Positions 3,539 to 46,727 of a stretch of 64,000 nucleotides of DNA are shown here, in pieces. Both the position numbers and the translations under genes were made by a program. The stretch lies in sequence record LC739535.1; one strand, given 5' to 3'. The notes below the pieces were generated by a model. That model was not told where the DNA came from. It was given only the letters and a program-made list of their open reading frames with translations, and did not search any database. This DNA comes from Escherichia phage phiWec186. Numbering within the stretch: the stretch's first letter is position 1; each line of letters opens with the position of its first letter.

Positions 3539-3567
3539 GCAATCTCACTAAACAAAAGGAGATTTAA

Positions 3568-3765
3568 ATGGCTACGAAGAAACAAAAAATGAAATGTCTG
3601 TCACTAACTCAACTGGGACACAGTGCAGGTTGTGTGACGATCGGTAAAACCTACTCCACCACTTTGAATAAAGAGAACAACAGCTTTACATTCAAAGATG
3701 ACAATGGTAACATGCAGGTGGGGATTTACCCTGAGTGTGCATTCGGTACTTGGGAAAAAGTTTAA
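3568..3765 (+). CDS. hypothetical protein
   Basis: SD AAAGGAG upstream. Confidence 0.55.
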   Translation: MATKKQKMKCLSLTQLGHSAGCVTIGKTYSTTLNKENNSFTFKDDNGNMQVGIYPECAFGTWEKV

Positions 3766-3784
3766 TTAACTGATCGGAGGGAGT

Positions 3785-3958
3785 ATGCAAGACAAGAAAA
3801 ACAATGTTCGTTATGCTTTGTACGGACGTATGGGCGTAGACTGCGAATGGAGACTTCTGTTACAGCGTATTCCCTCTTATCAAGAAGCTATGACGAAGCG
3901 AGAACATTATAAGAAGACGTGGAGACACGTTGTTTGCAAACATTACGAGGAGGCATAA
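3785..3958 (+). CDS. hypothetical small protein
   Basis: 57 aa ORF not in the track; SD GGAGGGAG; stop overlaps the next start. Confidence 0.45.
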   Translation: MQDKKNNVRYALYGRMGVDCEWRLLLQRIPSYQEAMTKREHYKKTWRHVVCKHYEEA

Positions 3959-4266
3959 TGAGCACATTATCAACAGCAGTCAAGTTCCACCAGGATTATG
4001 AAGAAGCTGTCAAAGATGCTGACAATCCTTCCTCGTTAGTGTTTGAGGATCGTACAGGTTTGAAGTGGGTTAAATCTTTCGATGAGATCTATTTCTGGTA
4101 TCCGCAGGGAGCCACAAGCAATAGTTCTCTGTATAGCTACGAACTGGAATACCGTGGCCCTGTAGATGAAGATGAAAACTTTATCATGTATTTCGTAAAT
4201 AATGGTTGCGGTGAAACGTTTAATGTTGTATTCTCTAAAGCAGATGAGTCTGACGAGGAGGTGTAA
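3958..4266 (+). CDS. hypothetical protein, tandem paralog A
   Basis: Start moved to the ATG at 3958 (SD GAGGAGG). Homologous to the next gene (ELEYRGP..FIMYFVNNGCGE vs ELEHRAP..FIMFCVSDGYGE). Confidence 0.55.
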   Translation: MSTLSTAVKFHQDYEEAVKDADNPSSLVFEDRTGLKWVKSFDEIYFWYPQGATSNSSLYSYELEYRGPVDEDENFIMYFVNNGCGETFNVVFSKADESDEEV

Positions 4267-18438: not shown

Positions 18439-19029
18439 ATGAATACCGAGAGAGATTTAAAACTCTTGTGGTGGGAAGTGATGCAGGAGATCAAGGAGGA
18501 TTTCCCTGTTTACTACAACATGCTACGTGAAGCTGGATATACGGCTTGCGTTAGGAACAAAGTGAATAACTCTTTCGGTTGGTGCAACTACCGAGAAAAG
18601 ATTGTTGTTGTGAATTGGCACTTGCATAAAAACTCCACAAGGGATATGATAGTGGACACAATGAAGCATGAGATTGCTCATGCGATCGACGGTTGTATGG
18701 GTAAGTTCAGTCGTCATGGACCACACTGGCAAAAGCTGGCAGCAGAGTTGGGAGCCAATCCTAAAGCTACTTCCAAAGAACCGTTAAACCATGAGTACAA
18801 ATATGTTCTTGTTTTGGTGGACAGATTTGCCACAAGATGTGTTAGAGGGTATAATCGTAAACCTAACCGTATGACTCCAGGGAAACAACCACATATTTGG
18901 TTGAAGAGTGATAAAGAGGGGACAGAAGGAAAAATATGGTTGTATAAATGGGAAGATTGGGTTAAAGTAGCTAAAGAATATGGTGTTTCACCTTACACAA
19001 GAGAAATAGAAGAGGAGAATGAAGAATGA
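18439..19029 (+). CDS. SprT-like zinc metallopeptidase (putative)
   Basis: HExxH motif MKHEIAHAIDG. Confidence 0.45.
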   Translation: MNTERDLKLLWWEVMQEIKEDFPVYYNMLREAGYTACVRNKVNNSFGWCNYREKIVVVNWHLHKNSTRDMIVDTMKHEIAHAIDGCMGKFSRHGPHWQKLAAELGANPKATSKEPLNHEYKYVLVLVDRFATRCVRGYNRKPNRMTPGKQPHIWLKSDKEGTEGKIWLYKWEDWVKVAKEYGVSPYTREIEEENEE

Positions 19030-20138
19030 CAAGTCCATTTTTGAAAGCGGCAACTGGTGGTCAAAAGAAATCTGAAACGAGTGTACTGACTGCTACTACA
19101 GATGCAAGCAAGTCCGTGTTCGCTCCGAGTGTCCTGGATGCAAGTCCAGTGTATGCTCCAGCAGCGCCAAAAGCTGTGCCTACCTTGCCAACAATGTCTC
19201 GTAAAGAGATTGAAGAAGTGGGTGCAGAAGCAGGTTTAACTCTCCGCACGCTGAATGCCGAAGTGTTAAAGCACCAACGTAGCAATCAAGGCGATGAAAT
19301 GAGCCAACGCCTTACCGCGCTGATTAAACAAGCCAAACAGCTTGATCCTGCTTCTATCAAGCAGAGCAAAGGTGTAGGCAAACTTATCAAGAAACTGATG
19401 GGTATGAAGGAAGATCTGTTCGGGGAATTCGATAATGTGAACAACCGTATCGAAGAACTCGTTAAGAATCTTCAGATGGATATTCGTAAAGAAGAAGATT
19501 CTCTGGTGTACCTGGAGAAGCTGCACCAGGCGATCGGACAGTACGCCGCAAGCCTGAATCGTGATATGGAATTACTCACAGCAGCTTATGAGCAAGAACT
19601 GGCTAACTTTGAAGCTACGCCAGAAGATGACGTAGAAGCCCGTCAACGCGTCCGTGACACGCTTGATCTTCTGGAGATACGTATTGCTGACTTGAAGGCA
19701 TTACGCTTGCTGTGCGTGCAAATGGGGCCGCGTGTATTGGGTATGCAGAAAGTATCTGCCAGCCTCATGCGTTCTGCTCGTAATATTGTGAACAATGTGA
19801 TTCCTGCTTACTCGGCAAACTTCTCGATGTATATTGAAAGTCTGCGCCAGAAGAAAGCAGCAGAAACACAGAACAACGTTCTGGACGAGTTCAACCTGGC
19901 AATCAAACTGGGTAGCGATCTTGCCACACAGAACCAGATCGAAGCAGCAGCACTGGCTAACCGCCAAGTGTTGGATATCGAAACTCTGCGTCACGATCAG
20001 GAGAACTTGGTTAAGATGTTGGAAGAAACTAACCGCATCAATACGGAAGCCCGTGCTGCCCGTGTTGATTACATCAATGAAGTTCAATCTCTCGAAGATG
20101 GGATGGTTGACGCTGTTAAGAAGGGGTTGGGTAAATGA
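19026..20138 (+). CDS. TelA-like (toxic anion resistance family) protein
   Basis: About 370 aa helical protein; segments resemble TelA/KlaB as I recall them; SD GAGGAG. Confidence 0.5.
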   Translation: MTSPFLKAATGGQKKSETSVLTATTDASKSVFAPSVLDASPVYAPAAPKAVPTLPTMSRKEIEEVGAEAGLTLRTLNAEVLKHQRSNQGDEMSQRLTALIKQAKQLDPASIKQSKGVGKLIKKLMGMKEDLFGEFDNVNNRIEELVKNLQMDIRKEEDSLVYLEKLHQAIGQYAASLNRDMELLTAAYEQELANFEATPEDDVEARQRVRDTLDLLEIRIADLKALRLLCVQMGPRVLGMQKVSASLMRSARNIVNNVIPAYSANFSMYIESLRQKKAAETQNNVLDEFNLAIKLGSDLATQNQIEAAALANRQVLDIETLRHDQENLVKMLEETNRINTEARAARVDYINEVQSLEDGMVDAVKKGLGK

Positions 20139-20341
20139 GAATCCGTGTATACATGCTTGACGAACAAGCTGGAGAAATAGGTGTTCGTTATGATGAAGAG
20201 AAACGCTTTGCCCCAATGACCCAGCTACAAACTCCAGATATTTTTGCAGCTTGTCGTGACGGATATATCTATGAAGGTTGTCGCAACTTTGGCAGATTTA
20301 AAGTTATTTCTGATGTGGAATTTAACGAGGAGGAAGAATGA
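20135..20341 (+). CDS. hypothetical protein
   Basis: ATGA-coupled. Confidence 0.5.
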   Translation: MRIRVYMLDEQAGEIGVRYDEEKRFAPMTQLQTPDIFAACRDGYIYEGCRNFGRFKVISDVEFNEEEE

Positions 20342-20508
20342 AAACATTGCGTGTGAACATCGAAACTACCTGGCGAGATTTCGAGGTTGTTGATATTGAG
20401 ATTGAAGACGATATGTCTCAAGAAGATATCGAAGATCTTGCAAAAGAAACATTTCAGGACTATTGTAATTACGGGTTCCATATTTTAGGGGAGGAAGAAG
20501 ATGTTTAA
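20338..20508 (+). CDS. hypothetical small acidic protein
   Basis: 56 aa ORF not in the track; SD GAGGAGGAAGA. Confidence 0.45.
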   Translation: MKTLRVNIETTWRDFEVVDIEIEDDMSQEDIEDLAKETFQDYCNYGFHILGEEEDV

Positions 20509-20899
20509 ACACACAAACGTAAACTTGAAATTAACAGTAACAGATCCGACTCTTTTCATCAATCTTACAAGCGGGGAAGTTTATGAAGTTATCACAGACG
20601 AGGATGGTTCTTGCTTCCTTAAAGGTTATTATCTCTGTGAATCTGATGAGTTGGTATCTATTATCACCTTGGGAGAATACGAAGAACCAGGCTTCCGTGT
20701 GGAGGTTGTTAAGAATCCCGATATTATCCAGTTGACTCGCCAAGAACTGATCACAATCATGGAAGACGCTTTTATTGATGGATGGAAGACTCAAAACTAT
20801 GATTGGAGTGGCCCAGAAGACTTCCTGCGTCTTCATAAAGAGTATGACGATTCCAGCGAAACTACTATTGCCATTGATAGTATTAAGGCTGGTGTGTAA
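20501..20899 (+). CDS. hypothetical protein
   Basis: SD GGGGAGGAAGA. Confidence 0.55.
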   Translation: MFKHTNVNLKLTVTDPTLFINLTSGEVYEVITDEDGSCFLKGYYLCESDELVSIITLGEYEEPGFRVEVVKNPDIIQLTRQELITIMEDAFIDGWKTQNYDWSGPEDFLRLHKEYDDSSETTIAIDSIKAGV

Positions 20900-20908
20900 T
20901 GAAAAGTG

Positions 20909-20937
20909 TTGACAACAATCTCCATAAGATGGATAAT
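20909..20937 (+). promoter_or_regulatory. sigma70-like promoter TTGACA-N17-GATAAT
   Basis: gtgTTGACAac context in the intergenic gap. Confidence 0.55.
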
Positions 20938-20968
20938 ACCTCCATCGAAAAAACGGGAGGAGATAAGA

Positions 20969-21241
20969 ATGTTTGATTTTAAAATAAAGGATTCAAAACC
21001 CCAAGATGTAGCAGTTCGTTTCGAAGAGTTGGGGATTGGTGAAACTTTCATGTATTATTCAGCATATGAAGAAAATGGTTTGGATACATTTGCAAACTTA
21101 GTATTCCTTAAAAGCGGCGGCGCGACTGCTGTTTGTTTGAATAGTTCATCAAGAGGGAGTGTCCATACCGTATCCCCAGATGTGCCGATGGTTGCAGTTC
21201 GTTTAGTAGTTACTGATATTACACTTACAGAGGAGAAATAA
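20969..21241 (+). CDS. hypothetical protein (paralog of 22263..22544)
   Basis: ATG at 20969 after GGGAGGAG; homologous to the 22263 product. Confidence 0.55.
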   Translation: MFDFKIKDSKPQDVAVRFEELGIGETFMYYSAYEENGLDTFANLVFLKSGGATAVCLNSSSRGSVHTVSPDVPMVAVRLVVTDITLTEEK

Positions 21242-21242
21242 T

Positions 21243-22043
21243 ATGTCCAATAAAATTAGCCTGAAGAAACGCCAAGACACCCTGACCATTTCACTGAAGA
21301 AAAAGAAAATTGTCAACGAAGATCAAAAGATCGTTCTGCGTGTTGCAAGCGCACTGGATATCTCCGGCAGCATGTCCAGCCTGTATCGTAACGGTACTGT
21401 AAGTGAGTTTGTTGGTAAGCTGCTTCCGTTTGGTATGCTGTTCGATGATAACGCGCAGATCGATATGTGGGCTTTCAACAATAGCTCTCGTGAAATCACT
21501 CCAGCAACTGCTGATGTGTATGATGATTACGTTGGTAAATGCATTAATGGTCGTGTAACAGTCCAGGGTGGCACAAGCTATGCACCTGTTATGCAGGATA
21601 TTTACGATTCCTACTTCGGTAGCACCACTAAATATGAAACTGTAGAAACCCCTGTAACCAAAGAAGTTCCTAAGAAAGGTTTCTTCAACCGTTTACTGGG
21701 TAAAACCGAAACTGTAGAAGCTATTGTAGAAAAAACTGTAGCCGTTGCTGTGCCTGGTGTAGACGTTACTCCGGCAGTTGTGTTCTTCCAGACAGATGGA
21801 GAGAACGATGATCCGAGCCGTGTACTCTCCGTACTGGAAAAGAACAAGGGTAAACCTATTTACTGGTTCATGGTGGGTGTTGGTAGTGCTCGTTTCTCTT
21901 TCCTGAAAGATTTGGCTGAAGCTTACGACAACGTAGCATTCATTGGTCTGAACGATCTTTCCTTGACAGACGAGCAGCTTTACGATAAACTCTTGTCTGA
22001 AGAGTTCGGTGAGTGGGTTGAAAAGGTTGGTGCTAAGAAATGA
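21243..22043 (+). CDS. von Willebrand factor A (vWA) domain protein, TerY-like
   Basis: MIDAS motif LDISGSM, then GGTSYAPV and VFFQTDGENDD; N-terminus shares the SxKISLKK...ISLKK start with the TerD gene. Confidence 0.65.
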   Translation: MSNKISLKKRQDTLTISLKKKKIVNEDQKIVLRVASALDISGSMSSLYRNGTVSEFVGKLLPFGMLFDDNAQIDMWAFNNSSREITPATADVYDDYVGKCINGRVTVQGGTSYAPVMQDIYDSYFGSTTKYETVETPVTKEVPKKGFFNRLLGKTETVEAIVEKTVAVAVPGVDVTPAVVFFQTDGENDDPSRVLSVLEKNKGKPIYWFMVGVGSARFSFLKDLAEAYDNVAFIGLNDLSLTDEQLYDKLLSEEFGEWVEKVGAKK

Positions 22044-22282
22044 TCGACACGCTGATCTCTCAAACGGTGTTGCAAGTGATGCGTGAGAGAGAAGCTTTCA
22101 TCATGAAGGGTCTTAAAGATTATTTTGGGACTCTTTCTTTGGAAGAACTCAAACTACGCGTTGAGATCCATGCGTATCCTTCTTATGAAGAATGGATTGA
22201 CAAAGCAAATAAAGCTGTTATAATGCGTATCAACAAACCAGAAATCACGACAGGAGGACAAGATGTTAAATTTCGCCATTAA
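22040..22282 (+). CDS. hypothetical protein
   Basis: ATGA-coupled ORF; weak SD. Confidence 0.4.
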   Translation: MIDTLISQTVLQVMREREAFIMKGLKDYFGTLSLEELKLRVEIHAYPSYEEWIDKANKAVIMRINKPEITTGGQDVKFRH

Positions 22283-22544
22283 GAAAGATAGCAAACCAAA
22301 GATTCAGACTTGTCGCATTGCAAATCTTACACATGGTGATTTGTTTGTTCTGAAAAGTGCCTACGACGAAGACGGTCTTGATCCAGAAGCAGTCGTCGTT
22401 TATATGGTGTTGCGGCGAGATGAAGACACCAAGCACCCATACAATGCGGTAGAGATGAATTACAATGCAATGTTGTGCTCAATACACTATACGGCAGAGT
22501 TGGTGCAGGTAGAGTTAACAGTTAACGAAATTAAACTTAAATAA
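22263..22544 (+). CDS. hypothetical protein (paralog of 20969..21241)
   Basis: SD AGGAGGA; sequence similarity to 20969..21241. Confidence 0.55.
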   Translation: MLNFAIKKDSKPKIQTCRIANLTHGDLFVLKSAYDEDGLDPEAVVVYMVLRRDEDTKHPYNAVEMNYNAMLCSIHYTAELVQVELTVNEIKLK

Positions 22545-22559
22545 TAGAGGAGACACATA

Positions 22560-23162
22560 ATGAGCGATAAAATTTCCCTGAAAAAAGGTTCCACCGAGAA
22601 GATTTCCCTGAAGAAAGTTGCTCCGGCACTGAAAGAACTGCGTCTGGAGTTCTCCTGGAAATCAAACTCTAAACTGGATCTGGATGTAAGCGCACTTGTA
22701 TGCCGACACAACGCCTCTGGCAACCCTGAAATGCTGTCTGCACGTCATCTGGTTTGTTATGCTAACAAGTTTGATCCAGAACGTTCTGTATTCGCAGGTG
22801 ATGATGTTCGTGACGGTACTGGTCAAATGGAACAAATCGATGTAACCTTGGCTAAGATCTCCGATAAAGCCGAAGAGATTGCTTTTGTCCTAACTATTGA
22901 TGATGAAACGGGTCAGAAACGTCTGGGTCACGCTACTGAAGGTATGCTGAAGATCTTTGATGCCGAGCGTAACGTTGAGATCCTGGACTTCGACTTCTTG
23001 GCTCCTGAAGTGGCTGGTAATACCATCTGCCACGTAGCTTCCCTGGTTCGTGAAGACGGTGAATGGAAACTGAAAGCTTACGGTGTTGGTAAAGCAGGTA
23101 TGGATATCTGTGATGTGGTTATGGCCTTCGGTGGTCAGAAAGAATGGTACGATTGCCCGTAA
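22560..23162 (+). CDS. TerD-domain protein
   Basis: TerD-like layout: N-terminal ISLKKG..ISLKK, DLDVSALV, GDDVRDGTG, FDFLAPE, C-terminal WKLKAYG. Confidence 0.7.
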   Translation: MSDKISLKKGSTEKISLKKVAPALKELRLEFSWKSNSKLDLDVSALVCRHNASGNPEMLSARHLVCYANKFDPERSVFAGDDVRDGTGQMEQIDVTLAKISDKAEEIAFVLTIDDETGQKRLGHATEGMLKIFDAERNVEILDFDFLAPEVAGNTICHVASLVREDGEWKLKAYGVGKAGMDICDVVMAFGGQKEWYDCP

Positions 23163-23199
23163 GATTTAACTGAAATGTTGTTGGGGGAGAAATCCCCCA

Positions 23200-23228
23200 T
23201 TGCAAAAACGCCTCTCATGTGTTATACT
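23200..23228 (+). promoter_or_regulatory. sigma70-like promoter TTGCAA-N17-TATACT
   Basis: Preceded by a ggggga-gaaa-tccccc hairpin. Confidence 0.5.
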
Positions 23229-23259
23229 GGTAGTTCATTCACCCAAAAGGAGGCAAAAT

Positions 23260-23781
23260 TTGCTGATAAAAAACTTTGTAACAGTTGCGTTACTATCCTT
23301 AACTGCTTTTACATTTACACCTGTCACGGCAACCGCCGAAGCTGCAAACGTAAAGACTGCTAAAGTAGTTCACAAATGTGCAAAGCAAGATACTAAAGAA
23401 AATCTCTTGGCTTGTGCAATTTACGCTGAAAGTCGTAATCAGGGTAAACGTGGGATGTATGCTGTAGGTAATGTAGTATTGAACAGGAAAGGTGATGATT
23501 ACTTCCCTGATAATATTAAAGATATTCTCTTCCAACGAGGACAATTCTCTTACAGGAAGAAGTTTAACGTTACCGAAGCAGAGCGATGGAAAGAAGCTAA
23601 AGCTATCGCAAAACGACTTATATACCTGGATACACACTTCCCTACACTTAGAGAAGCCCAGGACATGACAAAAGGTGCGACATTTTTTAAGAAAGTAAAA
23701 ACCCGTGCACACTGGACAAAAGATATGGTCTTAGTGTATCGTTATAAAGAACATCAGTTCTACCTACCGACAAGGAGCTAA
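23260..23781 (+). CDS. SleB/CwlJ-family cell-wall hydrolase with signal peptide (candidate endolysin)
   Basis: LACAIYAESRNQGKRGMYAVGNVVLNRKGDDYFPDNIKDILFQRGQFSY matches the cell-wall hydrolase family. TTG start at 23260 after AAGGAGG gives a signal peptide LIKNFVTVALLSLTAFTFTPVTATAEA. Confidence 0.6.
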   Translation: MLIKNFVTVALLSLTAFTFTPVTATAEAANVKTAKVVHKCAKQDTKENLLACAIYAESRNQGKRGMYAVGNVVLNRKGDDYFPDNIKDILFQRGQFSYRKKFNVTEAERWKEAKAIAKRLIYLDTHFPTLREAQDMTKGATFFKKVKTRAHWTKDMVLVYRYKEHQFYLPTRS

Positions 23782-23782
23782 T

Positions 23783-24067
23783 ATGCGAGAAGATAATACT
23801 GTTGTTGTTGCGAGCTATCTCGTTATCGGTTTAACCGAAGAAGATGTGTACTACATTCGTAAAGGTTTGGAAGCTTACGCTACCCTCTTCATGGAAGACG
23901 AAAGCGATGTTGATAAATATTCCGTGGAGTTGATCAACGACAGTATTTATCCTTGCATAGCTCTTAAAGTAGATGCTGTTCTGTGGGAGCGTTTTGCAAG
24001 AAGTCACGATGCTATTGAATCTTCAATGGTTATGACACAAAACAACATTTTGGGGGTGATTCACTAA
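23783..24067 (+). CDS. hypothetical protein
   Basis: SD AAGGAG. Confidence 0.55.
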   Translation: MREDNTVVVASYLVIGLTEEDVYYIRKGLEAYATLFMEDESDVDKYSVELINDSIYPCIALKVDAVLWERFARSHDAIESSMVMTQNNILGVIH

Positions 24068-24297
24068 TGGCAGATATCATTGAGGTAAACTTCCGTACTC
24101 GGAAGAAAGTAGAGAAATATACAATATTGAAAAGTGTTTGCGTTGTTTGTTTCAATAGTGTAATCTACGATTCAAGAAAGGGCGAAGACGGTAATGAGCC
24201 GTATATCGAACTGTCAAAGGGCAACGGTAGTTGCATTTGTAAAGCTTGTGCTGTTCAGATTAAGGGGGTTGTTGATGAAAACGAATGGGATAAATAA
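24067..24297 (+). CDS. hypothetical Cys-rich small protein
   Basis: CVVCF...CICKAC zinc-ribbon-like. Confidence 0.45.
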   Translation: MADIIEVNFRTRKKVEKYTILKSVCVVCFNSVIYDSRKGEDGNEPYIELSKGNGSCICKACAVQIKGVVDENEWDK

Positions 24298-24469
24298 TAC
24301 AGGGGAACTTTCTCTTGAGAACGTAACAAACGACAAACTGATTAAAATGCGAGATGTAGCTTTGGATCATCTCCAAGACTCCTTCAAGGAATATATGGAA
24401 GCACGGGATCGTGTGCTTGAGATTCGTCAAGCAATGGTTAAACGCGGAATGGTGGTGGATTCTAAATAA
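24275..24469 (+). CDS. hypothetical protein
   Basis: ATG at 24275 after AAGGGGG. Confidence 0.4.
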   Translation: MKTNGINNTGELSLENVTNDKLIKMRDVALDHLQDSFKEYMEARDRVLEIRQAMVKRGMVVDSK

Positions 24470-24478
24470 GGGGTCAGT

Positions 24479-25042
24479 ATGATTTATTATATTACCCCCT
24501 ATCTAAGTGGAGATATCGGCAAAGCAATTAACGATGCTATTGCCGTTCTTCACGAAGATAGTTGGGTCTGTTTACGTGATATCGATACCATGTTCTTACT
24601 GCCAGACCAACCTTCTATGTTGGAAGATTTGGTAGCAACCAATCCACCGTTTGATGTGATCGGTGCGTCTTGTAATCGTTTAGGTAGTGGTTATCAACTT
24701 CTCGGTGGAAAGATTGATGATGATCCTAACATTCTGAACCATATTTCTCATGCCAAAGTTGCTCGTGATTACTATGGTGATGAAATTGAAGAAGTCCCAC
24801 AAGGCACTCCCTTAGCAGGTTTCTTTCTATTGTTCAGGAAATCATTATGGAAGGAGATCCCTTTTGAAGAACGTACCATCCAGTTCGATATAATCTTCTC
24901 AAACACTTTACATGAACGAGGAAAAAGGTTAGGATTGATGCGTGGGATGTATCTCTTCCATATTTACCGTTTAGGTCAAAAAGATCCTCAACGGGCAATA
25001 TCACACCTTATGCATTGTCATGATCACCGGAAAACTATTTAG
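24479..25042 (+). CDS. putative glycosyltransferase (GT-A-like)
   Basis: N-terminal YYITPY...CLRDIDTMF arrangement; weak. Confidence 0.35.
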   Translation: MIYYITPYLSGDIGKAINDAIAVLHEDSWVCLRDIDTMFLLPDQPSMLEDLVATNPPFDVIGASCNRLGSGYQLLGGKIDDDPNILNHISHAKVARDYYGDEIEEVPQGTPLAGFFLLFRKSLWKEIPFEERTIQFDIIFSNTLHERGKRLGLMRGMYLFHIYRLGQKDPQRAISHLMHCHDHRKTI

Positions 25043-25050
25043 GGGGAAAG

Positions 25051-25734
25051 ATGGAAAATATTAAAATTGGGGTTGGCGTTATCACTGTAGGTGTTCGTCC
25101 ACTTAAAGATTACATGGTTGCACCTGGTGTAGACTTCAAAGTGTTTCACGATCCCGATCGTAAAGGTGTAGCTTATGCTCGCAACCAATTAATGAAACAG
25201 TTCTACGATGAAGGTTTTGACTACTGGTTCATTTTTGACGATGATTGCTATCCGGTTAAACGTGGCTGGGAAGAATACTTCGTTAACCAGGCTGTCGAGA
25301 ATGGTTGGGACTTCTTCGGTATGCCAGAATACTTCAAAGATACTGTGATAGGTTGTTCTGGAGAAGTAGTCTTCTGGGAATTGGCTATGTGTCAGTTTGC
25401 AATGTATTCTCGTGCAACTGTTGAGACGATGGGTTATTTCCGTCCTTATACACACGGATATGGTTTCGAAGATGCAGAATGGACTAATCGTCTGAAAGCT
25501 TCAGGTTTGAATAAAGGACTCCAGGGCGTACCTTGTCCGATGCGCATTATGGCGTACATTCACCCCGACGATGTTTTCGGTGATAACCCTTTACCTTTTG
25601 CTAATCTGACAAAAGAAGAGAAAGAATCAGCAATCGGGATCAATTGGGAAGAATACAAACTGTCTTTGGAGGATATTAATAATGGCAAAACACACATCTC
25701 TTTTGAAGAGGCTGAAGGATATGGCGTTAAATAA
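25051..25734 (+). CDS. putative glycosyltransferase (GT-A fold)
   Basis: WFIFDDDCYP acidic motif after a beta-strand-rich N-terminus. Confidence 0.45.
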   Translation: MENIKIGVGVITVGVRPLKDYMVAPGVDFKVFHDPDRKGVAYARNQLMKQFYDEGFDYWFIFDDDCYPVKRGWEEYFVNQAVENGWDFFGMPEYFKDTVIGCSGEVVFWELAMCQFAMYSRATVETMGYFRPYTHGYGFEDAEWTNRLKASGLNKGLQGVPCPMRIMAYIHPDDVFGDNPLPFANLTKEEKESAIGINWEEYKLSLEDINNGKTHISFEEAEGYGVK

Positions 25735-26668
25735 GAAACCAACCCTACTGTGTGACAACAAATTCAACAGTGGTTGTGATTACCATCGCATTGTCATGCC
25801 ATTTTCTAACACAGAGATCAAGCCACGTACTGATGTACTGGTCTTTAACCGCATCTTCTCGAAGGGTGCTGATGAAGTAGCCAAACTTAAGCGCCAAGGT
25901 GTTAAGATTGTTGTAGATTTGGATGATTTCTATCAATTGAATCCAGAACACTACCTGGCGCATCTGTACGCGCCAAACACCCGCACAATCGTGGAAATGG
26001 TTAAAATAGCAGATATTGTCATTGTCACAACCGAATACCTGGCGTACAAAGTTCGTCACTTAAACTCTAACGTTGTTGTGATCCGAAATGCTCTACCGTT
26101 TGATGATGGTCAATTCACTCTCTCGAATGATCGTACTTCGGGTACGCCTATCATTTGGGCTGGAGGTGCGAGTCATGAACCGGATTTACGTTTGCTTTCA
26201 AACACTTTTGATGATAGTTTATTGTCTATCGCAGGGTATGAAGCGAGCAGCACAGTGACAGGGCAAGAGTGGGTTAAGATCCGCCGTAGTTTGCCTAATG
26301 CGCAGTATAAACCTGCTGTAGATTCTTTGAATCATTATATGTCTGCATACGATGGTCATGCTATGGCTGTAGCTCCGTTAGTAGATAACGACTTCAACCA
26401 TTGCAAGAGCAACCTGAAAGTATTAGAAGCTGGTGCTAAAGGCATTCCAATCGTTTGTTCTAAGGTATTACCTTACTACAACCCGATCGATGCCCGTGCA
26501 GTAACCTTCGCAGATAGCAAAGCAGAGTGGCACTATGAAGTTGTAAAACTACTTCGTAATCCAAACTACCGCGAAGATCGTGGACTGTTCTTGGCTGAAC
26601 ATGTTCGTACTCACTACAACTTGAAGGATGCAAACGAATTGCGTCGTCAAGTGATCGAAAGTCTGTAG
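25721..26668 (+). CDS. putative glycosyltransferase (GT-B-like), tandem paralog 1
   Basis: Homologous to the next gene (CDYHR..., IWAGGASHEPDL, KSNLKVLEAGAKGIPIVCS); start could also be the ATG at 25682. Confidence 0.5.
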   Translation: MALNKKPTLLCDNKFNSGCDYHRIVMPFSNTEIKPRTDVLVFNRIFSKGADEVAKLKRQGVKIVVDLDDFYQLNPEHYLAHLYAPNTRTIVEMVKIADIVIVTTEYLAYKVRHLNSNVVVIRNALPFDDGQFTLSNDRTSGTPIIWAGGASHEPDLRLLSNTFDDSLLSIAGYEASSTVTGQEWVKIRRSLPNAQYKPAVDSLNHYMSAYDGHAMAVAPLVDNDFNHCKSNLKVLEAGAKGIPIVCSKVLPYYNPIDARAVTFADSKAEWHYEVVKLLRNPNYREDRGLFLAEHVRTHYNLKDANELRRQVIESL

Positions 26669-26674
26669 GTGTTT

Positions 26675-27619
26675 ATGGGACAAATTATTCTTGACAATCG
26701 TGGTGGAAAAGAATATAGTGTCTGTGATTATCACCGAGTAATGCTGCCTTACACAAGGCAGTTCTCGGCCCAACCGTCACAGAACGTATATGTCTTTAAC
26801 GGTGTCCCTACGAAAGGGAAACAAGGCTTCATAGCCCTTAAGAGCATGGGCTTTAAGATGGTAATGGATTTGGATGACTCTTTAAACATTCCCCAAGGCC
26901 ATATGCTGGAAGACATTTTTGATGCAGGTATTCGAGAAGACTTGCAATGGTTCCTCGAACGCAGTGATCTTGTAACGACAACAACCCCTGCTCTCCAGGT
27001 GGAATTGTCCCAGTACAATCCTAACGTGCATATTATCCCAAATGGTTTACCGTTTGACGAGGATCAGTTTACGTTAACTCGTGATCGCTACTCCAAGTCC
27101 CCTGTAGTTTGGGCTGGAAGTGAAACACACAAGCAAGACCTGGCTCTACTACCGAACTTCGGGAGTGACTTAACGATTTGCGGATTCCGCAGAGATAGTG
27201 AAGTGTTAAGTAGTCAGCAATGGACCGATATACGTGAAAAGGTGGCTCCAAGCTGCAAATATGAGGCTGTTAGACCATATGAGAGCTATATGGAATCTTA
27301 CGACGGTCATCAGATAATGCTTGCACCTCTAACAGATAACATGTTTAATAACGCTAAGAGTAACCTGAAGATTCTGGAAGCAGGTGCCAAGGGTTTACCT
27401 TTAGTGTGTTCTCCCCGTGAAAACTACTTCACCGAAGAGTTTAAAGATTTGTTGTTCTTTGCAGAAACAAAAAGCGAGTGGGAAGATATTGTTAATTACC
27501 TGATCCAGTGTCCTGATGTGGGTATTGAAAAGGGATTAGCTTTAGCTAAGTATGTTCGTAAGCATTACCATATTGATGTGCTGAATGAACGCCGTAGATT
27601 ATTATTTGAGGAGTTATAA
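26675..27619 (+). CDS. putative glycosyltransferase (GT-B-like), tandem paralog 2
   Basis: VCDYHR..., VWAGSETHKQDL, KSNLKILEAGAKGLPLVCS; GTG at 26669 is an alternative start. Confidence 0.5.
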   Translation: MGQIILDNRGGKEYSVCDYHRVMLPYTRQFSAQPSQNVYVFNGVPTKGKQGFIALKSMGFKMVMDLDDSLNIPQGHMLEDIFDAGIREDLQWFLERSDLVTTTTPALQVELSQYNPNVHIIPNGLPFDEDQFTLTRDRYSKSPVVWAGSETHKQDLALLPNFGSDLTICGFRRDSEVLSSQQWTDIREKVAPSCKYEAVRPYESYMESYDGHQIMLAPLTDNMFNNAKSNLKILEAGAKGLPLVCSPRENYFTEEFKDLLFFAETKSEWEDIVNYLIQCPDVGIEKGLALAKYVRKHYHIDVLNERRRLLFEEL

Positions 27620-45026: not shown

Positions 45027-46088
45027 TTAGCCTCCAATATCGTACCAGTTTCCGTTCACGTTTCGCTGGAGACGTTTGAAGTAAACACCACCAATGTTAT
45101 CCGCAGAACTACGGCCTGTTTCCTGAACAATAATACCAGAAAGAACATAGCCGGAAGAACAAACGTATGTCCAAGACACTTCGTTACCTGGTGGGTAATA
45201 TACGCCTTGGCTGGTATAACGTATGTCACGAACAAAGTTACCATTCGCATAGTTATAGTTGTTACTGATCTGGTTTTGCAAGTTACTGTTCACGCTGTCA
45301 ATACGTGAGTTTAAGTTGTTGTTAACGTTGTTCAGGTTGTTTTGAACAGAGTTAATATTCGTTTGCAAGGTGTTCTGTAAAGAGCTTAAACGCGAGTTCA
45401 AGTAATCTAAACGAACCAGAGCATTGCCGTTCCCAGTATCTTGTCCACTATTAGATCGTGGATTATCAATCAGAACATAACCGCCATCATACAAACGTAC
45501 TGCACAGGATACGTTACCATTGGTAGGGTTCCTGCGATATATGTAAAGGTGTCCTCCGTTATTATATTCGGAAGAGATTTCACCGTTAGTTTGACCTGCA
45601 AAGTTTTTAAAGAAGATAGTAGCAGGATCTGAAGTAGATGTACCATTTACATAAATATCTCCACCATAGATAGCACCGCCGCCATCGCGTTTAACCAACA
45701 CGTTAGGGGTTACTGTCGTGCTTGTTGCATCTGTGATGTTTGAAGATAAGTGGTTGTGGCTATTATCTACAACTTGAATAGAAAGTGTTACTGCTGCATT
45801 CCCGTTCCAGGTTACTTCACCTGTTGCATCCCCTGACATTGTTATTTTAGTACCAACCAGAGGAAGATACGTATTTGGTAATGTTGGAAGAAACTCGTCA
45901 ACCAGATAACGAATCCATAATCCGTTATTGTTGAGTACCCAATTCATTTCTTCACAGGTCATGATTTGACCGTAATCCATACCCACGGTACGAATAATTT
46001 CTTTAGGTCGAATCTTGTTTAAGTTTTGTGTTCCTGGGAGGGTAACTGTTTCTACAGCCCAATCAGGATAGTATATTGGCTTCGCCAT
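45027..46088 (-). CDS. tail fiber protein
   Basis: 353 aa; N/S/Q-rich repeats, Gly-rich beta region; followed by Tfa. Confidence 0.55.
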   Translation of the reverse strand: MAKPIYYPDWAVETVTLPGTQNLNKIRPKEIIRTVGMDYGQIMTCEEMNWVLNNNGLWIRYLVDEFLPTLPNTYLPLVGTKITMSGDATGEVTWNGNAAVTLSIQVVDNSHNHLSSNITDATSTTVTPNVLVKRDGGGAIYGGDIYVNGTSTSDPATIFFKNFAGQTNGEISSEYNNGGHLYIYRRNPTNGNVSCAVRLYDGGYVLIDNPRSNSGQDTGNGNALVRLDYLNSRLSSLQNTLQTNINSVQNNLNNVNNNLNSRIDSVNSNLQNQISNNYNYANGNFVRDIRYTSQGVYYPPGNEVSWTYVCSSGYVLSGIIVQETGRSSADNIGGVYFKRLQRNVNGNWYDIGG

Positions 46089-46097
46089 TGGAACTCC

Positions 46098-46727
46098 TTA
46101 ATCGATTTGTTTCAGAAGCATACACATGCGTCCAGTTTCATCCCCTGTGGATTCCAAGTACAAGGAACCCAAACCACCAATACCATGAGGATCTTTGGTA
46201 GCGTAATAAGAGGTGAATCCAAAAGCTGATCCGGCTTTAGCTCCCAGTCGGTAGTTGCTTATAATTGGGAACACACTTAAAAGTTGCTCAAGAGCTTGAT
46301 CAGACTGAAGACACAAGTTATAAAAGAACACATCAAAGGATTTATTCAATCCCACATATGTGTTAATTGTATCTCGTTTTGTACCTGTGAAACGGGCGAA
46401 GATATCAATAATGTCCCCACGAGTCCCCGAAGAGGCAACACGATAAGCCCTGATTTTTAAAATTGTGCGGTACTCTTCATCATCAGAACCATTTCGTTCA
46501 ATACCCATCTCTTCACCAAGGAGATCAAGATAATCTCCCGTGGCTGTAGATATTAAACGGTGTTTAGCAAGATAGATCATTGCCTGATCTATCTTTTGCT
46601 TTTCACTTGATACGATGTAGAGGAGCTTGACAATGTTAGGGGAAGATTTAAAATCTTCAATCAACAGATCTTTAACGTCTTCATTGATATTCTCCCAAGT
46701 CGTTACATGGTCAACACTCACTGCCAT
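46098..46727 (-). CDS. baseplate protein (gpI-like position)
   Basis: Position between the J-like gene and the fiber, as in P2/Mu baseplate operons. Confidence 0.4.
   Translation of the reverse strand: MAVSVDHVTTWENINEDVKDLLIEDFKSSPNIVKLLYIVSSEKQKIDQAMIYLAKHRLISTATGDYLDLLGEEMGIERNGSDDEEYRTILKIRAYRVASSGTRGDIIDIFARFTGTKRDTINTYVGLNKSFDVFFYNLCLQSDQALEQLLSVFPIISNYRLGAKAGSAFGFTSYYATKDPHGIGGLGSLYLESTGDETGRMCMLLKQID

Follow-up and report, generated by a model that had tools for sequence, protein, structure and literature searches.

The 64,000-nucleotide stretch of Escherichia phage phiWec186 DNA analysed here (sequence record LC739535.1, hereafter the window) encodes at 23260-23781 a small, putatively secreted cell-wall hydrolase of the SleB/CwlJ type, a genuine and conserved gene that had been annotated before this analysis. 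We favour, with confidence slightly better than even, the reading that its product is a Sec-exported periplasmic murein hydrolase made at low dose, a second, holin-independent and accessory muralytic enzyme rather than the principal endolysin of the phage. The gene, its start, its domain and fold, the conserved glutamate, the signal-peptide pattern and the presence of other lysis genes were all computed directly. The accessory role is the most likely one because a canonical lysozyme and spanin set is encoded elsewhere.

In the proposed sequence of events, a conserved promoter of host type (sigma-70-like) would drive, with a timing that we infer, a transcription unit that opens with the hydrolase gene. 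The small precursor would be exported by the host Sec system and most likely cut by signal peptidase I after Ala24 or Ala28, which would release a basic periplasmic enzyme of ∼17 kDa with a SleB/CwlJ fold. By analogy with the lytic transglycosylase SleB, from which its specificity is presumed, the enzyme would use Glu57 to cut the glycan strands of peptidoglycan, and may weaken or remodel the sacculus as an accessory to a canonical lysis set elsewhere, consisting of a soluble T4-type lysozyme and a two-component spanin. The elements of the locus are as follows.

23183-23198, plus strand: G/C hairpin GGGGG-AGAAAT-CCCCC, 21 nt past the TerD stop codon and abutting the -35 hexamer.
23200-23228, plus strand: putative sigma-70-like promoter with extended -10 (TTGCAA at 23200-23205, 17-nt spacer, TG at 23220-23221, TATACT at 23223-23228).
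23247-23253, plus strand: Shine-Dalgarno sequence AAGGAGG, 6 nt upstream of the TTG at 23260, with AGGAGG invariant in six relatives.
23260-23781, plus strand: coding sequence of the putatively secreted SleB/CwlJ-type cell-wall hydrolase (173 aa, TTG start; PF07486, PHROG 938).
23260-23343, plus strand: predicted type-I signal peptide, residues 1-24 or 1-28.
23362-23769, plus strand: SleB-type catalytic domain, approximately residues 35-170 (AF2 pLDDT above 90, Foldseek match to SleB).
23377-23415, plus strand: Cys40 (23377-23379) and Cys52 (23413-23415), a pair just before the active-site Glu.
23428-23430, plus strand: GAA codon of Glu57, the predicted catalytic glutamate (AIYAESRN aligned with SleB AVYGESRG).

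Over window positions 22500-24500 (2,001 bases compared), phages phiWec179 and phiWec181 (Stephanstirmvirinae, Phapecoctavirus) are 100% identical to the window, phiWec188, phiWec190 and the 'Pseudomonas' phage PsgM04F are 97% identical, and many other Phapecoctavirus genomes are ∼78% identical; by this sequence comparison the window is Phapecoctavirus DNA. At the hydrolase locus, PsgM04F and several 'Campylobacter phage' entries (records OR584014, MG065689 and others) share 77-97% identity with E. coli Phapecoctavirus or rV5-like genomes, and their host labels are possibly unreliable. The GenBank protein BDU12260.1 of phiWec179 maps exactly onto window 23260-23781 with a TTG start, and the homologous TTG is annotated as the start in five further records (Mt1B1_P17 RefSeq, PsgM04F, ALITA, KP2025 and tuntematon), where the product is named 'endolysin', 'putative cell wall hydrolase' or 'hypothetical protein'.

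The TTG at 23260 opens a 173-codon frame 6 nt past AAGGAGG. No in-frame ATG occurs before codon 66 (23455), and since this codon lies beyond the conserved Glu57, an ATG start would delete the active site and was rejected. The longest open reading frame, from a TTG at 23200, was likewise rejected, since it crosses the conserved promoter and its frame is broken by upstream indels in relatives. In an intergenic alignment of six phages from three lineages, AGGAGG, the TTG start and the -35 hexamer TTGCAA are invariant, while the -10 element keeps the form TAnAnT (TATACT, TACAAT, TAGAAT). The promoter, Shine-Dalgarno sequence, TTG and hairpin are conserved in Phapecoctavirus, Justusliebigvirus and a Klebsiella phage, and the GGAG-N6-TTG arrangement also occurs in PVP-SE1. 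That a weak TTG is conserved behind a strong Shine-Dalgarno sequence suggests selection for making little of an enzyme that is potentially toxic. A murein hydrolase exported in active form before the end of infection would carry a risk of premature lysis, and some control would be required, a point against the favoured reading.

The promoter-like site at 23200-23228 scored a modest 9/12 plus TG in the scan. The number of promoter-like sites in the region was not above that in shuffles, and a wider scan also matched the antisense strand of structural genes; it is because the site is conserved and intergenic, and not because of the scan, that we assign it a putative promoter function. The hairpin at 23183-23198 folds at -15.3 kcal/mol (z=-2.7). 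Equivalent hairpins with changed stem lengths and loops are found in Mt1B1_P17, ALITA and KP2025, and the folds across the window and its relatives range from -14 to -19 kcal/mol with z between -2.2 and -3.2. No T-run follows the hairpin in the window, and KP2025 has TTTTCTT; the hairpin probably serves the upstream gene (TerD) as a weak terminator or RNA-end element. A preliminary description of this DNA, made from the sequence alone, had proposed the TTG start 6 nt after AAGGAGG as well as a dedicated promoter and an upstream hairpin, and these proposals hold, the TTG being conserved in six relatives and the promoter and hairpin in relatives too. Its start coordinate of 23184 falls inside the hairpin and not at a codon, the coding sequence starting at 23260, and the annotated ATG start that it mentioned is found in none of the six GenBank/RefSeq records inspected, all of which use TTG.

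The 173-residue protein matches the Pfam family Hydrolase_2 (PF07486) over profile positions 2-100 of 100 with 62.6 bits, where the cutoff is 27 (E=5.7e-17), and, at E=5e-20, PHROG 938, a family labelled 'endolysin'. With 31 homologues as input, AF2 gave a model with a mean pLDDT of 84, rising above 90 over residues 35-170. Foldseek aligns this model with the SleB structures 4f55 and 4fet (TM 0.70-0.77, rmsd 2.4-2.9 Å) and returns no other PDB match with E below 1 besides SleB chains; the same two structures are the only PDB sequence matches found with HMMER. Among viral models in BFVD there are 42 matches at E<=1e-3, and all the named ones are cell-wall enzymes, mostly 'SleB' or 'cell wall hydrolase'. 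The HMMER alignment places E57 opposite the Glu of YGESRGE in 4f55 and 4fet, and this residue is one of six invariant columns among the 31 homologues, whose identity extends down to ∼21%. The catalytic Glu is essential if SleB is to act as a lytic transglycosylase (PMC12331253), and we infer from the alignment that E57 is its equivalent. Cys40 and Cys52 are invariant in 19 close homologues, and the same C-x11-C spacing is found in PVP-SE1 gp243; the two residues could possibly form a periplasmic disulfide. The predicted mature protein has 145-149 residues, a mass of ∼17 kDa and a pI of ∼9.9.

The catalytic domain of Bacillus SleB (4f55, 4fet; PF07486) thus shares with the phage protein its fold and its active-site motif with an aligned conserved Glu, and by this analogy the phage enzyme is expected to act as a lytic transglycosylase that cuts glycan strands. 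The resemblance does not extend further: the two are only 22-23% identical, and the phage protein lacks the N-terminal peptidoglycan-binding domain of SleB, carries its own signal peptide and serves in a host without a spore cortex or a muramic-delta-lactam substrate. Its score against the SleB equivalog model TIGR02869 is 42.2 bits, against a cutoff of 236.5, and it has no PG_binding_1 match. Orthology to the spore enzyme SleB was rejected on account of this low score and the absence of the peptidoglycan-binding domain.

The N-terminus was assessed by a rule-based check of n-, h- and c-region criteria. It comprises an n-region MLIKN, an h-region FVTVALLSLTAFTF and a c-region TPVTA-TAEA-ANVK, in which the hyphens mark two candidate signal-peptidase sites. 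The pattern of a type-I Sec signal peptide is complete, with a positive n-region, a hydrophobic core of 14-15 residues, a Pro at the h/c boundary and small residues at -3/-1. The Kyte-Doolittle maximum over 12 residues is 2.2, at residue 6, and the AF2 pLDDT is below 50 over residues 1-31. The protein has no lipobox, and a lipoprotein reading was rejected. Across 29 homologues (39-98% identity) the c-region sequence varies, but the positive n-region, hydrophobic core, boundary Pro or Gly and small -3/-1 residues persist. The same pattern recurs with unrelated sequence in PVP-SE1 gp243 (KIKAIILATACAFSLTTTPVLA followed by KEN, site PVLA-KEN) and in gp156 of the T5-like phage HdH2 (MKAALLLVAALTFSFSSQA followed by SH, site SQA-SH).

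An uncleaved signal-anchor-release (SAR) domain, which would keep the enzyme inactive and anchored in the inner membrane until depolarisation releases it, is improbable in our estimate. Such an anchor would suit the hydrophobic core, which is ∼47% Ala, Ser or Thr and unusually conserved in close relatives (L12, L14, T15, T18, F19 and P21 are invariant), as well as the two invariant Cys near the active site and the Pseudomonas homologues of PS24 and phiMK, whose hydrophobic N-terminus has no obvious cleavage site. However, the membrane segment of the window protein contains no Cys, no pinholin partner lies nearby, and all close homologues, as well as the proteins of PVP-SE1 and the T5-like phages, have candidate signal-peptidase sites with small -3/-1 residues after a helix-breaking Pro. 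Because distant homologues keep the pattern despite their unrelated sequences, a cleaved type-I signal peptide is favoured over a SAR anchor.

The SleB-like protein is found in 1,168 phage records (tblastn), including rV5-like and T5-like phages and the Pseudomonas phage genera Pakpunavirus and Nankokuvirus, and in the genomes inspected its gene sits among replication and accessory genes, outside lysis cassettes. Homologues with a signal peptide occur in PVP-SE1 and in T5-like phages. The T5-like 'cell wall hydrolase SleB' (HdH2 gp156, AKFV33) consists of one Hydrolase_2 domain behind a classical signal peptide and is ∼36% identical to the window protein, differing in its ATG start, its length of 149 aa, its Cys positions and its location near tRNA genes. 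T5-like phages have their own well-known lysis cassette with an L-alanoyl-D-glutamate peptidase, to which the SleB-like protein is accessory.

The SleB-like proteins of the Vequintavirinae (PVP-SE1 gp243, rV5 SleB, Pectobacterium phage CB7_83 and Cronobacter phage CR3_087) are 39-43% identical to the window protein over the domain. They coexist with a separate endolysin, and their genomic neighbourhood differs from that in the window. PVP-SE1 gp243 shares with the window protein the signal peptide, the C-x11-C pair and the GGAG-N6-TTG start. The annotated start of gp243 is probably four codons early, GGAG-N6-TTG AAA ATA AAA fitting a start like that of the window gene; ahead of it stands a terminator hairpin with a T-run. 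[quoted passage not shown] In Certrevirus a holin candidate with two transmembrane domains (TMDs) overlaps the SleB-like gene (PMC7344957), and this is absent beside the gene in the window.

The other muralytic enzyme of the phage group is a T4-type lysozyme, a 167-residue stand-alone protein (Phage_lysozyme, PF00959, E=2e-11) encoded directly upstream of phoH in PsgM04F (record coordinates 92695-93198) and 100% identical in phiWec179 (45980-46480) and phiWec181 (3548-4048). It has the intact Glu-Asp-Thr triad motifs VDEG, YPDT and WTVGIGH, with the C-terminal sequence WYSQTPNRAERV. It has no hydrophobic N-terminus or transmembrane segment and is soluble. The protein is labelled 'hypothetical protein' in phiWec179, phiWec181, phiWec188, phiWec190 and PsgM04F, 'lysozyme' in many relatives and 'baseplate hub + tail lysozyme' in some other records. 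In the Pharokka annotation of PsgM04F the SleB-like gene is the sole 'endolysin' listed.

PsgM04F also encodes a spanin pair upstream of the terminase gene, consisting of a one-TMD i-spanin and a lipoprotein o-spanin (lipobox MMTGC) whose reading frame overlaps it, in agreement with the phi92/phAPEC8 spanin family that has been listed previously (PMC6139136). The o-spanin is apparently mis-annotated: its full reading frame (122269-122610), which starts MRKQIMQKLLLGLCLASALMMTGC, overlaps the i-spanin, and only the C-terminal part (122428-122610) is annotated, as a hypothetical protein. No homologue of the T4-type lysozyme or of the spanins was found inside the window (tblastn).

None of the five small open reading frames flanking the hydrolase gene contains a TMD, nor does any beside the homologues in PVP-SE1 and HdH2. 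A crude whole-genome TMD scan of PsgM04F gave no assignable holin, the small candidates with two TMDs (e.g. 109881-110069, 110079-110267 and 25767-25988) lying amid many spurious reading frames. Because no holin was identified in the phage group, the holin-dependent route of the T4-type lysozyme is itself presumed.

The place of this lysozyme next to phoH is the same as that of PVP-SE1 gp146, an experimentally characterised endolysin (PMC3352856). Homology between the two was rejected (BLASTP E=2.5), only the phoH-adjacent position being shared, and any replacement at this site would be non-orthologous because the two proteins are unrelated in sequence. Among records at 60% identity or more, ∼131 contain the SleB-like gene and ∼132 the T4-type lysozyme, and both appear to be core genes. 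Their position cannot separate their roles because both sit among early/middle-type genes.

Several features invite the view that the SleB-like gene encodes the true endolysin, which would be exported through Sec with a cleaved signal peptide as in Lys44 and restrained until the membrane is depolarised, leaving another or a redundant role to the T4-type lysozyme. The protein combines a signal-peptide pattern with a muralytic fold, its gene belongs to the core set of the subfamily, the genome has yielded no recognised holin, and the toxicity of CB7_83 and the implication of CR3_087 in lysis (PMC7344957) point the same way. The 'endolysin' label in PHROG 938 and RefSeq also counts against an accessory reading. 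We nevertheless regard this view as unlikely. The same genomes contain a conserved, intact and soluble T4-type lysozyme, and the SleB-like protein, although it has the muralytic catalytic domain of an endolysin, is hence not the only or principal non-virion muralytic enzyme; its gene is linked to neither a holin nor a spanin, and in a T5-like phage it lies near tRNA genes. Homologues also occur alongside the gp146 endolysin of PVP-SE1 (PMC3352856). In T5-like phages they accompany the L-alanoyl-D-glutamate peptidase known from T5.

Precedents for muralytic enzymes exported by Sec independently of a holin are Lys44 of the Oenococcus phage fOg44 and the SAR endolysins P1 Lyz and R21 of phage 21. 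Each of these, however, is the only endolysin of its phage, belongs to another fold and is encoded in a lysis cassette with a holin or pinholin. The phage group studied here differs in having a separate canonical lysozyme and no cassette at the SleB-like gene.

These results bear on the central proposal of the preliminary description, a SleB-like hydrolase with an N-terminal signal peptide serving as a candidate endolysin. Its identification of the hydrolase is borne out by the PF07486 match (E=5.7e-17) and the SleB fold, the signal peptide fits the rule-based type-I pattern kept in homologues, and no membrane or holin-like protein adjoins the gene, in line with its remark that no holin is evident nearby. 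Of the proposed 'SAR-like or secreted' lysin, the secreted form with a cleaved signal peptide is retained as a prediction and the SAR-like form is less likely. The endolysin proposal stands as regards the muralytic domain; it does not stand as regards a lack of canonical lysis genes, given the T4-type lysozyme and the PsgM04F spanins elsewhere. A canonical endolysin and holin pair elsewhere, with the SleB-like gene dispensable for lysis, was one of the findings that the preliminary description had set against its own proposal, and this condition is in large part borne out: the T4-type lysozyme is present in phiWec179 and phiWec181, although no holin was found. The endolysin reading is weakened accordingly.

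Upstream of the hydrolase gene lies a phage-borne Ter-like cluster that spans window 19026-23162, with TerC placed further upstream in GenBank. The members identified in the window are listed below.

19026-20138: TelA (PF05816), in the Ter-like cluster upstream of the hydrolase.
21243-22043: vWA-TerF-like protein (PF10138), in the Ter-like cluster.
22560-23162: TerD (PF02342), immediately upstream of the hydrolase.

Justusliebigvirus and a Klebsiella phage keep the same order of the Ter cluster and the hydrolase gene. At 22197-22224, inside the reading frame 22040-22282 and just ahead of the overlapping reading frame 22263-22544, there is a perfect match to the sigma-70 consensus (TTGACA-16-TATAAT, with TG upstream). 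Downstream, four consecutive glycosyltransferase-like genes (24479-27619) belong to the same apparent transcription unit as the hydrolase; one reading frame in this stretch (25051-25734) has weak Glycos_transf_2 and TET-associated glycosyltransferase matches, both below threshold. The small genes downstream of the hydrolase have no Pfam match, and PHROGs assigned them to families of unknown function only; one of them (24067-24297) encodes a small Cys-rich protein (CVVC...CICKAC), a possible zinc ribbon (PHROG 15360, function unknown).

This setting raises the alternative of a periplasmic enzyme that remodels the envelope during infection and has no part in lysis, for example in making room in the sacculus, murein recycling, superinfection exclusion or joint action with the Ter-like and glycosyltransferase genes. 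The host-type promoter, the location among early/middle-type genes and the conserved weak start codon are consistent with such a function, as are the coexisting full canonical lysis set and the order vWA, TerD, hydrolase, small genes and glycosyltransferases, which is conserved in the Stephanstirmvirinae. Yet in PVP-SE1 and the T5-like phages the gene is not linked to Ter and glycosyltransferase genes, and no partner gene is common to all lineages; we consider a function wholly outside lysis decidedly unlikely, and retain the accessory muralytic enzyme as the preferred reading.

Parts of this picture are already known, namely that there are two lytic proteins in Phapecoctavirus, and that a Vequintavirinae homologue has a signal peptide and is toxic. 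Phapecoctavirus has been stated to encode 'two lytic proteins' (PF00959 and PF07486; PMC10793346), and two 'endolysins' have been described in rV5-like phages (PMC12210895). Elsewhere the Hydrolase_2 protein was called the only endolysin of a Phapecoctavirus (PMC10282059), a statement contradicted by the T4-type lysozyme in the same genomes.

The label 'endolysin' given to the SleB-like gene by automated pipelines, and by one paper as the 'only endolysin', has thus to be set against the T4-type lysozyme in the same genomes and the spanins in a close relative. This changes the description of lysis in coliphages that are therapeutic candidates, and the choice of enzyme for enzybiotic work. Explaining why phages with a canonical lysis set also retain a secreted murein hydrolase would advance the biology of lysis to a modest but genuine extent. 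We suggest, tentatively and as a possibility we hold in some doubt, that the phAPEC8-, rV5- and T5-like phages share a distinct class of Sec-secreted, signal-peptidase-processed SleB-type hydrolases, whose weak TTG start is conserved in the two myovirus lineages and which work alongside and independently of the holin-endolysin-spanin pathway. If so, these enzymes might prime or remodel the sacculus earlier in infection, and would constitute a second, unrecognised layer of envelope manipulation rather than classical endolysins.
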